From a virus, in the IMG/VR virus record IMGVR_UViG_3300017776_000014, positions 1-57,568 of that record: a stretch of DNA of 57,568 nucleotides. One strand, written 5' to 3'. The notes beneath the pieces were generated by a model, which worked only from the letters and a program-made list of their open reading frames with translations, did no database searches and was not told the origin of the DNA. Positions 22,290-22,305 of the stretch are shown piece by piece; the stretch's first letter is position 1, and the number at the start of each line of letters is the position of its first letter. Made by a program: the position numbers and the translations under genes.

Positions 22290-22305
22290 GTATAAGTCCC
22301 TTTAG
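22290..22305 (+). promoter_or_regulatory. Class A phage-promoter candidate (plus orientation) for the late/structural operon
   Basis: GTATAAGTCCCTTTAG followed by AAGGA, 41 nt upstream of the ATG at 22347. Confidence 0.65.

Follow-up and report, generated by a model that had tools for sequence, protein, structure and literature searches.

Bacteriophages with a T7-type single-subunit RNA polymerase (RNAP) begin transcription at promoters that are highly conserved within a genome, a property by which they can be mined, and that are present in 18 copies in T7, 12 in SP6, four in LUZ19, four in KP34 and two in Syn5 (PMC11880802). Those of the T7/T3/SP6 group follow a 21-bp consensus with CACTA in region III (PMC11880802). 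Here we describe a 16-nucleotide (nt) element, GTATAAGTCCCTTTAG, that recurs in the 57,568-nt viral record IMGVR_UViG_3300017776_000014 of IMG/VR (positions 1 to 57,568; this whole stretch is referred to as the window). A role as a start signal is what would be expected in a phage with a T7-type RNAP, and we consider it likely that the 16-mer forms the core of a promoter, recognised in duplex form by a single-subunit RNAP of the phage, most probably a T7-family enzyme of 759 amino acids (aa) encoded in the window.

The source of this DNA is an uncultured marine podovirus of the CRP-7 type. Its gene content is that of a podovirus, with an SU10-type portal and capsid, a terminase, a family-A DNA polymerase, a primase/helicase and the T7-family RNAP (Pfam), and the nearest cultured phage by protein is Roseobacter phage CRP-7 (MK613349), which shares 36.5% identity in the RNAP and 55% in the portal. 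CRP-7 was published as the founder of a new, ocean-wide group (PMC6918029), and the word "promoter" occurs nowhere in its original description (PMC6918029). A nucleotide search of the phage collection returned only a 133-nt tail-fibre match to pelagiphages; at the DNA level there is consequently no close cultured relative.

Copies of the 16-mer and the units they head

A motif scan of both strands finds exactly five exact copies of the 16-mer in the window, where approximately 3e-5 would be expected by chance (2 x 57568 / 4^16). When up to three mismatches are allowed (<=3), there are eight matches against 0.65 expected, a count that none of 100 shuffled sequences reaches. The genome-wide scan for weaker copies with one or two mismatches, which the original prediction had proposed, came back empty over the whole window, and degenerate patterns drawn at the level of the family added no credible copies there. 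Three hits with three mismatches, at 12164, 34887 and 49548, were discarded as weak copies, being within genes or on the wrong strand and chance-like. Coding tandem repeats in the tail genes aside, a window-wide repeat count finds the 16-mer to be the sole source of an 11- or 12-mer present at least five times, and the promoter reading draws on this fact, since no other multi-copy motif is available to serve a T7-family RNAP.

All five copies lie between genes, co-oriented with the genes 3' of them and never inside a unit, and a reversed reading of the motif would give an incoherent arrangement at three of them. The copy that we designate P1 (14930-14945, +) faces right to a one-gene unit (15029-15418) that encodes a 129-aa protein conserved across all clades, and P2 (15012-15027, -) faces left to the replication unit (14903 to 4374), which includes the genes for DNA polymerase, primase/helicase, dCMP deaminase and the T7-like RNAP. 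Further along, P3 (21254-21269, -) faces left to a unit from 21019 to 15462 with genes for an SSB-like protein, a ThyA-like protein and ThyX and many small open reading frames (ORFs), while P4 (22290-22305, +) faces right to the structural unit from 22347 to 40166 (terminase, SU10-type portal, capsid and tail proteins). The last copy, P5 (40175-40190, +), faces right to genes from 40225 onward, across the contig junction, to 4304; these encode ribonucleotide reductase (RNR), tail proteins and three proteins of ~1200-1300 aa, with a second RNAP as the last of the unit. From the end of the motif to the next start codon there are 83 nt at P1, 108 at P2, 234 at P3, 41 at P4 and 34 at P5. Three details qualify the placement between genes: the P3 copy overlaps the final 6 nt of ORF 21264-21560, the P2 copy stops 1 nt short of the ATG at 15029 on the opposite strand, and the P5 copy begins 9 nt past the stop codon of ORF 39729-40166.

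Two bidirectional intrinsic terminators, recognised by inspection of the sequence, would close these units. One, at 4320-4375 (A-run, GCCCTACT...AGTAGGGC stem, T-run), lies where the second-RNAP gene and the replication unit converge and closes units 2 and 5; the other, at 15420-15463 (AAAAA, CCCCG...CGGGG stem, T9 run), closes unit 1 (15029-15418) and unit 3 (21019-15462). The two ends of the window are identical (1-123 = 57446-57568), from which it follows that the assembly is complete and circularly closed at 57,445 bp and that the fifth unit continues round to 4304. This 123-nt repeat lies within an ORF of 1300 aa and so reflects overlap in the assembly, not a terminus of the DNA molecule.

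The original prediction had listed the five copies as intergenic elements pointing to downstream genes and had combined them with terminators into a map of five units. Coordinates and strands were reproduced, the orientation held for all five copies, and the map proved correct, its units being delimited by the copies and the terminators at 4320-4375 and 15420-15463. Also as claimed, the genes left uncovered are limited to the two ORFs upstream of 21269 (21264-22043).

P1 and P2 face each other at a distance of 82 nt. Across the interval between them (14945-15012), the two divergent mRNAs would be perfectly complementary over their initial ~68 nt, and each polymerase would have to read through the opposing promoter.

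The placement of the copies bears on whether the motif is a promoter at all. It might instead be the site of a regulator, replication or packaging protein, or a processing or leader signal at the RNA level. Identical short intergenic repeats can indeed be operators or iterons, and the reverse complement of the 15012 copy gives AAGGGA, a Shine-Dalgarno-like sequence 8 nt before the ATG at 15029. Such a function would nonetheless hardly account for the strict orientation toward downstream genes, or for the presence of one copy at the head of every unit and none within units, and the element is not palindromic.

Lineage-specific versions in relatives

A further difficulty for a non-promoter role comes from related phages. 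Eighty loci were fetched via the RNAP protein, independently of the motif, and thus form an unbiased comparison set. Close relatives (87-97% DNA identity) have GTATAAGTCCCTTTAG unchanged amid flanks that differ at ~9% of sites, a conservation test that is biased because these loci were found by an exact search with the motif itself; the P4 copy is exact in loci L003 and L005 and the P5 copy in L008, L009 and L010. Clade 2, at ~60% RNAP identity, has a facing pair of a different 16-mer, TATATACCCCTTATAG, at the homologous junction, and in its contigs that sequence also precedes the early and the terminase/structural units and stands immediately in front of the RNR gene, the counterpart of P3 being at 4868 (+) in L156, upstream of an SSB-like gene. 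A clade with 62% RNAP identity has the version TATRCTCTCCTTWTAG and an additional clade has TATATACCCCTTAAAG, whereas in the L058-type clade the motif is only loosely recognisable as AGTWCC..TTATAR.

CRP-7 itself has a 58-kb genome with the same modules as the window and five copies of TAGTCCMYTATTAAAAGG, each intergenic and co-oriented; this related motif has AGTCC and an AT-rich 3' part in common with the 16-mer. One of them ends 10 nt before the start codon of the RNAP gene, so that a copy stands directly before that gene where in the window the nearest promoter (P2) is 8 kb upstream, and another precedes the RNR gene. A second difference is that the early and replication genes of CRP-7 are all on one strand, so a facing pair does not arise.

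All versions follow a common plan, namely an AT-rich 5' part (TATA..), a C-rich block, TT-N-TA and a purine, and the 5' parts in the other clades read TATATA, TATACT or TATAGT. Six lineages thus have six versions of the motif, and in a qualitative comparison the sequence and length of the RNAP specificity loop differ accordingly. A motif that drifts with its lineage at homologous places behaves, as far as sequence can tell, as one half of a polymerase-promoter pair. Position kept across clades while the sequence changes is a better fit to such a pair than to a protein site or an RNA signal, and we regard a non-promoter role as extremely improbable.

Attempts to extend this comparison were less productive. 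A loose regular-expression scan of 18 relatives was too noisy to define promoters in the remaining clades, and a search for relatives of the SSB-like gene, which would have supplied an unbiased sample of the P3 region, found none. An inverted repeat in L058, ACCAAGGATTAT, was discarded as it is located inside a gene.

Layout of the element

Each copy is followed by a purine-rich string (AAGAA, GTAGAG, GTGGGG, AAGGA or TAGGGAG, exactly as earlier listed), and a weakly conserved CTTAA occurs ~8-14 nt 3' of the motif. The promoter core would reach from about -15 to +1, the final G being the probable start, and would consist of an AT-rich TATAA, a lineage-specific and C-rich GTCCC for the specificity loop of the polymerase, an AT-rich TTTA for melting and a purine-rich start. 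In these respects the element resembles the promoters of T7, T3, SP6 and K11, which are likewise contiguous duplex elements (~17-23 bp) in several near-identical, intergenic and co-oriented copies. They too combine AT-rich sequence at the upstream end with a specificity block and an AT-rich tetramer ahead of G, lead into a purine-rich initial transcript (...TATAGAAG in SP6, TTTAGAAG here) and are served by a single-subunit RNAP that has a specificity loop. The resemblance of the 3' half to SP6 and T3 initiation regions, claimed in the original prediction, stands with respect to the AT-rich tetramer before G and the purines that follow, but it is loose, and the CACTA block of the T7 group is missing. 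Lacking CACTA, the 16-mer would work like T7-type promoters but outside the T7/T3/SP6 sequence group.

The 5' part, TATAAG, is like a bacterial -10 hexamer, and this makes the multi-subunit RNAP of the host another conceivable reader, possibly with the help of an unrecognised phage sigma factor or appropriator, as in T4 late transcription or phiEco32. The 5' halves are -10-like in all clades, a spacing of 7-8 nt to the purine start fits, and the capsid and portal are of SU10/phiEco32 type; phiEco32 employs its own sigma factor. A conserved -35 element, which a sigma-70-type promoter has at a spacing of 16-18 bp from its -10, and a TG extension are absent, however, and the nine bases after the "-10" are invariant, where sigma-dependent promoters have a variable discriminator. 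A host enzyme common to these phages would give no reason for the C-rich block to vary from clade to clade, and the T7-like RNAP would be left without a recognisable promoter. Pfam and/or PHROGs searches with 38 of the larger ORFs in the window turned up no sigma factor. Recognition of the 16-mer by the host polymerase is, in our view, highly unlikely.

Sigma-70-like sites as a class are no more frequent in the scanned region than in shuffled sequence (27 observed, 28.9 expected), so no host promoter can be named. The top match in that region, at 14897-14926 (+) (TTGCCA-18 nt-TATATT, 10/12), lies directly upstream of P1 and could give the host polymerase access to the gene for the 129-aa protein.

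Two phage polymerases and the presumed reader of the motif

The presumed reader of the 16-mer, the 759-aa T7-family enzyme, is encoded at 4616-6895 (-) and matches Pfam RNA_pol with an E-value of 1.6e-57. Aligned to T7 RNAP, it has motif A (DGSNNGWQH), PNFVHS (the H784 region), motif C (HDSF) and the C-terminal foot YFFA. Between clade representatives the alignment varies most, in sequence as well as in length, at the counterpart of the T7 specificity loop: the clade of the window has an 8-residue deletion there, and this stretch is nearly unchanged in L015, a relative at 89% identity with the same motif.

The RNAP gene (6895-4616) lies within a motif-headed unit (14903 to 4374), as the original prediction had it, ~8 kb downstream of P2 (15012, -). 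Its expression from P2 would accordingly be self-amplifying and in need of a starter, and the point raised in that prediction, that another polymerase must act first if the motif is the enzyme's own promoter, is a real bootstrapping problem for a gene so far into its unit.

A second candidate reader is encoded at 741-4304 (+), as the last gene of the late unit behind proteins of 1179 and 1300 aa. This protein of 1187 aa, previously termed RNAP-like, is by its predicted fold and invariant motifs a very divergent single-subunit RNAP, and the description is borne out by family motifs, library matches of relatives and structure. An exhaustive metagenome search places it in a family with 338 representatives of 50%-identity clusters, in which FNGR518, YIDGKTNG (D690), R766-x3-K770-x7-Y778-G779, IYD983AFK and a C-terminal QYYAH are invariant; the motifs T/DxxGR, A, B and C occur in canonical order, and the spacing of R, K and YG is that of T7. 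PHROG 414 "RNA polymerase" is matched by 11 of 20 relatives, and one of the 20 has a weak match to the PHROG "virion RNA polymerase." An AlphaFold model built on an alignment of 75 of the 338 representatives reached a pLDDT of 84.4 and a pTM of 0.86 (an earlier model from 11 sequences, at pLDDT 56, was too poor for use), and the top 50 Protein Data Bank (PDB) matches of this model in Foldseek are all single-subunit RNAPs, among them yeast mitochondrial RNAP (E 7e-16), T7 RNAP (3e-15) and the N4 mini-vRNAP (2e-14). Matches in the viral library BFVD are to T7-like phage RNAPs and to segments of N4-type virion RNAPs. Searches with the 1187-aa sequence itself (Pfam, PHROGs, and phmmer/hmmsearch against the PDB) gave nothing significant, including no match to the N4 virion RNAP, and hhalign of its family against the T7-like family returned a probability of 2-12%, which is not significant. 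Its homologs adjoin the T7-like RNAP gene in every clade, and in CRP-7 none was detected. The family is large and uncharacterised and has no Pfam model; in the 1187-aa protein, the first ~95 residues are predicted to be disordered, a stretch that includes a 21-nt tandem repeat at 880-940.

As a genuine single-subunit RNAP by fold, the 1187-aa protein might be the reader of the 16-mer after delivery with the virion, leaving less conserved signals to the 759-aa enzyme in the manner of N4 RNAPII. If an injected polymerase served the whole set of five promoters, the bootstrapping problem would disappear, and in N4 the highly conserved promoters belong to the virion enzyme (PMC4496689). On the other side, the structural genes would fall under the earliest polymerase, and the sole characterised virion single-subunit RNAP, that of N4, reads hairpins, whereas a contiguous duplex 16-mer is the T7-type mode. 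We therefore hold this assignment to be unlikely and infer that the 759-aa enzyme, and not the 1187-aa one, is the reader, for three reasons: L030 and L045 have promoters that differ at 1/16 positions, with T7-like RNAPs 62% identical and second RNAPs only 21% identical; CRP-7 has such a motif and a T7-like RNAP, with the homolog of the 1187-aa protein undetected; and the element is a contiguous duplex of the T7 type.

Several points weigh against the promoter reading and have to be set beside the evidence for it. Both promoter function and the start site are deduced from sequence alone. The motif has no match to the T7/T3/SP6 consensus, and its resemblance to a -10 hexamer, 7-8 nt before the putative start, has been described; so have the biased sampling of close relatives and the loose form of the motif in the L058-type clade. 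If early, middle and late units share one identical promoter, their order in time has no obvious basis, and with the polymerase gene under its own promoter the model requires a hypothetical starter. With these points on the other scale, the original proposal of a phage-RNAP promoter family is supported by the multiplicity of the motif, its intergenic and co-oriented copies, and its clade-specific versions at homologous places, CRP-7 included. The five identical copies would then drive all five units, that is, early genes and nucleotide metabolism, replication, the 129-aa gene, the structural genes, and the RNR, tail and ejection genes; the RNAP gene in unit 2 would amplify its own expression, with a first pulse contributed by a virion-delivered 1187-aa RNAP or by the host enzyme.

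Hairpin elements and a possible polymerase relay

A 25-nt hairpin element occurs in two copies in the window, and none of 100 shuffles gives any match to it. Copy 1 (14969-14993; TTAATTGgCCGC-GAAT-GCGGaCAAT) lies between the facing P1 and P2, in the leader of both transcripts, and folds as DNA of the + strand with -8.5 kcal/mol (z -3.8). Copy 2 (21063-21087; TTAATTGaCCGC-GGAT-GCGGgCAAT) precedes the SSB-like gene at 21019 (-), whose start is 44 nt away. A compensatory change from A-T to G-C is present in the window-type hairpin of the relative L007. Every clade has a hairpin between its facing promoters, though the sequences differ, and the order promoter-hairpin-promoter is preserved at this junction in all clades. 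In clade 2, the hairpins at these places form the family G(C/A)C-NNNN-ACAAG-NNNN-GTC with an invariant loop, of which L156 has four copies (4662-4698, 4960-4996, 5814-5850 and 11608-11644). Compensatory changes affect 5/7 pairs of the clade-2 stems, with 88% of cells paired as compared to 22-43% in slid controls.

The hairpins all share the strand that carries the early and replication genes, even one clade-2 copy located upstream of the early promoter, in the leader of a late unit that runs the other way. Such strand constancy argues for a role at the level of DNA over one at the level of RNA. Conserved and covarying stem positions are a feature of the hairpin promoters read by the N4 virion RNAP (PMC4496689), and a P2 promoter oligonucleotide is on record for N4 (PMC13492108). 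The loops of the present hairpins measure 4-5 nt, as against a 3-nt loop on a stem of 5-7 bp in N4-type early promoters. The analysis leads us to propose that the hairpins before the early and replication units may be promoters of the second RNAP; they could possibly also be leader stabilisers, processing sites or protein-binding sites.

By the position of its gene alone, the second RNAP is a candidate for a virion-delivered starter polymerase. Taken together with the hairpins, it raises the possibility of a relay independent of the host polymerase in this widespread, uncultured group of marine podoviruses, in which an ejected RNAP of ~1200 aa fires hairpin promoters that yield the 759-aa RNAP, which in turn fires the five duplex promoters. 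Strand-specific DNA hairpins would head the early and replication units, and the promoter of the polymerase's own gene would make an autocatalytic switch. We put this relay forward tentatively and consider it rather doubtful.

An extra hairpin, GAGACG-GGATAAAACTT-CGTCTC, occurs in L003 and L005 in the leader of the structural unit, downstream of the equivalent of P4, and is absent from the window at 22306-22346.

Other features of the window

The region at 21264-22289 (-) is the sole one without an upstream 16-mer. It holds ORFs 22043-21744 and 21560-21264 and a hairpin terminator at 21709-21736, and is a candidate for a pre-early region transcribed by another polymerase. Neither ORF had a family match in the library searches, and a homolog of one of the two was absent from every fetched locus. 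Within this region, the segments 21630-21690 and 22120-22180 contain three direct repeats (ATGTAGGTGTCGG, ATGTAGGTGTCGG and ATGTAGGTGGAC, which can be summarised as three copies of ATGTAGGTG) and a polypurine tract of ~60 nt, which may be signals of an origin, a regulator or a pre-early promoter. Sister clades have a pair of iteron-like direct repeats of GGTAACCGACAAA, 32-33 nt apart and ~450 nt from the facing pair (at ~2750-2800 in L057, L058, L060 and L087, at 2256/2289 in L036 and at 11108/11141 in L156), and no counterpart of these was seen in the window.

Genes of pyrimidine metabolism and modification type are dense in the window (6834-7520, 12402-12827, 14622-14903, 16454-17119, 19028-19672 and 40742-42508); the set comprises dCMP deaminase, a MazG/PRA-PH-like protein, the DUF1599 "nucleotide modification associated domain 1," ThyX, a second ThyA-like protein and RNR. 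This is a hint of a modified pyrimidine in the phage DNA, which would affect promoter recognition too. The 1300-aa ORF spans the contig junction (54287-57445 joined to 1-741, +), and its N-terminus contains RLQGFDAPE, by eye a motif of staphylococcal-nuclease type. It belongs to a late trio of large proteins reminiscent of ejection proteins, the other two being the 1179-aa protein (50757-54296) and the second RNAP. No tRNAs and no Rfam families were found in the window.

Comparison with other phage transcription systems

For all its likeness to the T7 group in the element and the type of enzyme, this locus differs in having only five copies, which stand also before early and replication genes and before the unit of the RNAP gene itself, while T7 gene 1 is transcribed by the host enzyme. 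Here, moreover, genes lie on both strands with a facing promoter pair, and the backbone is of SU10/CRP-7 type and not that of the Autographiviridae. The few copies and the lineage-specific sequences unlike those of T7 bring it closer to LUZ19, KP34 and Syn5, the last a marine phage with a small RNAP of 779 aa, and in phiKMV-like phages and Syn5 the RNAP gene is located at the end of the DNA-metabolism module, as it is here. In those phages, however, the host polymerase reads early and middle genes, including the RNAP gene, and phage promoters are reserved for late genes, unlike the present arrangement in which the phage motif heads every unit except for a 1-kb region.

N4 (Schitoviridae) offers a different set of parallels. 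It too has two polymerases of the T7 family, a divergent one with the virion or ejection genes and a T7-like one with the replication genes, and conserved DNA hairpins with variable, covarying stems before early and replication genes, which in our case are candidate promoters. The differences are equally plain: the second RNAP has 1187 aa as opposed to the ~3500 aa of the N4 virion RNAP (gp50), a giant protein with N- and C-terminal ejection domains, to which its sequence similarity is undetectable; N4 RNAPII is heterodimeric and dependent on cofactors, whereas the T7-like enzyme here is a single chain that has a specificity loop and for which there is a strong candidate for a duplex promoter; and the late genes carry the phage motif, where those of N4 have host promoters.

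Significance

The promoter alone is of moderate interest, which is raised by the self-driven polymerase unit, by the facing pair, and by a second RNAP with candidate hairpin promoters. The 16-mer supplies a concrete promoter candidate for an uncharacterised, small (759-aa) T7-family RNAP of an abundant marine phage group, and its variants in sister clades represent potential orthogonal polymerase-promoter pairs and a source of data on the co-evolution of specificity loop and promoter. With it comes a transcription map for CRP-7-type phages, of which the published description has none. A second single-subunit RNAP (by predicted structure) among the virion genes, together with covarying hairpins, makes virion-delivered transcription outside the N4 group testable. 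If true, the relay would be an N4-like strategy that has arisen or been kept outside the Schitoviridae, with a virion RNAP one third the size of that of N4.

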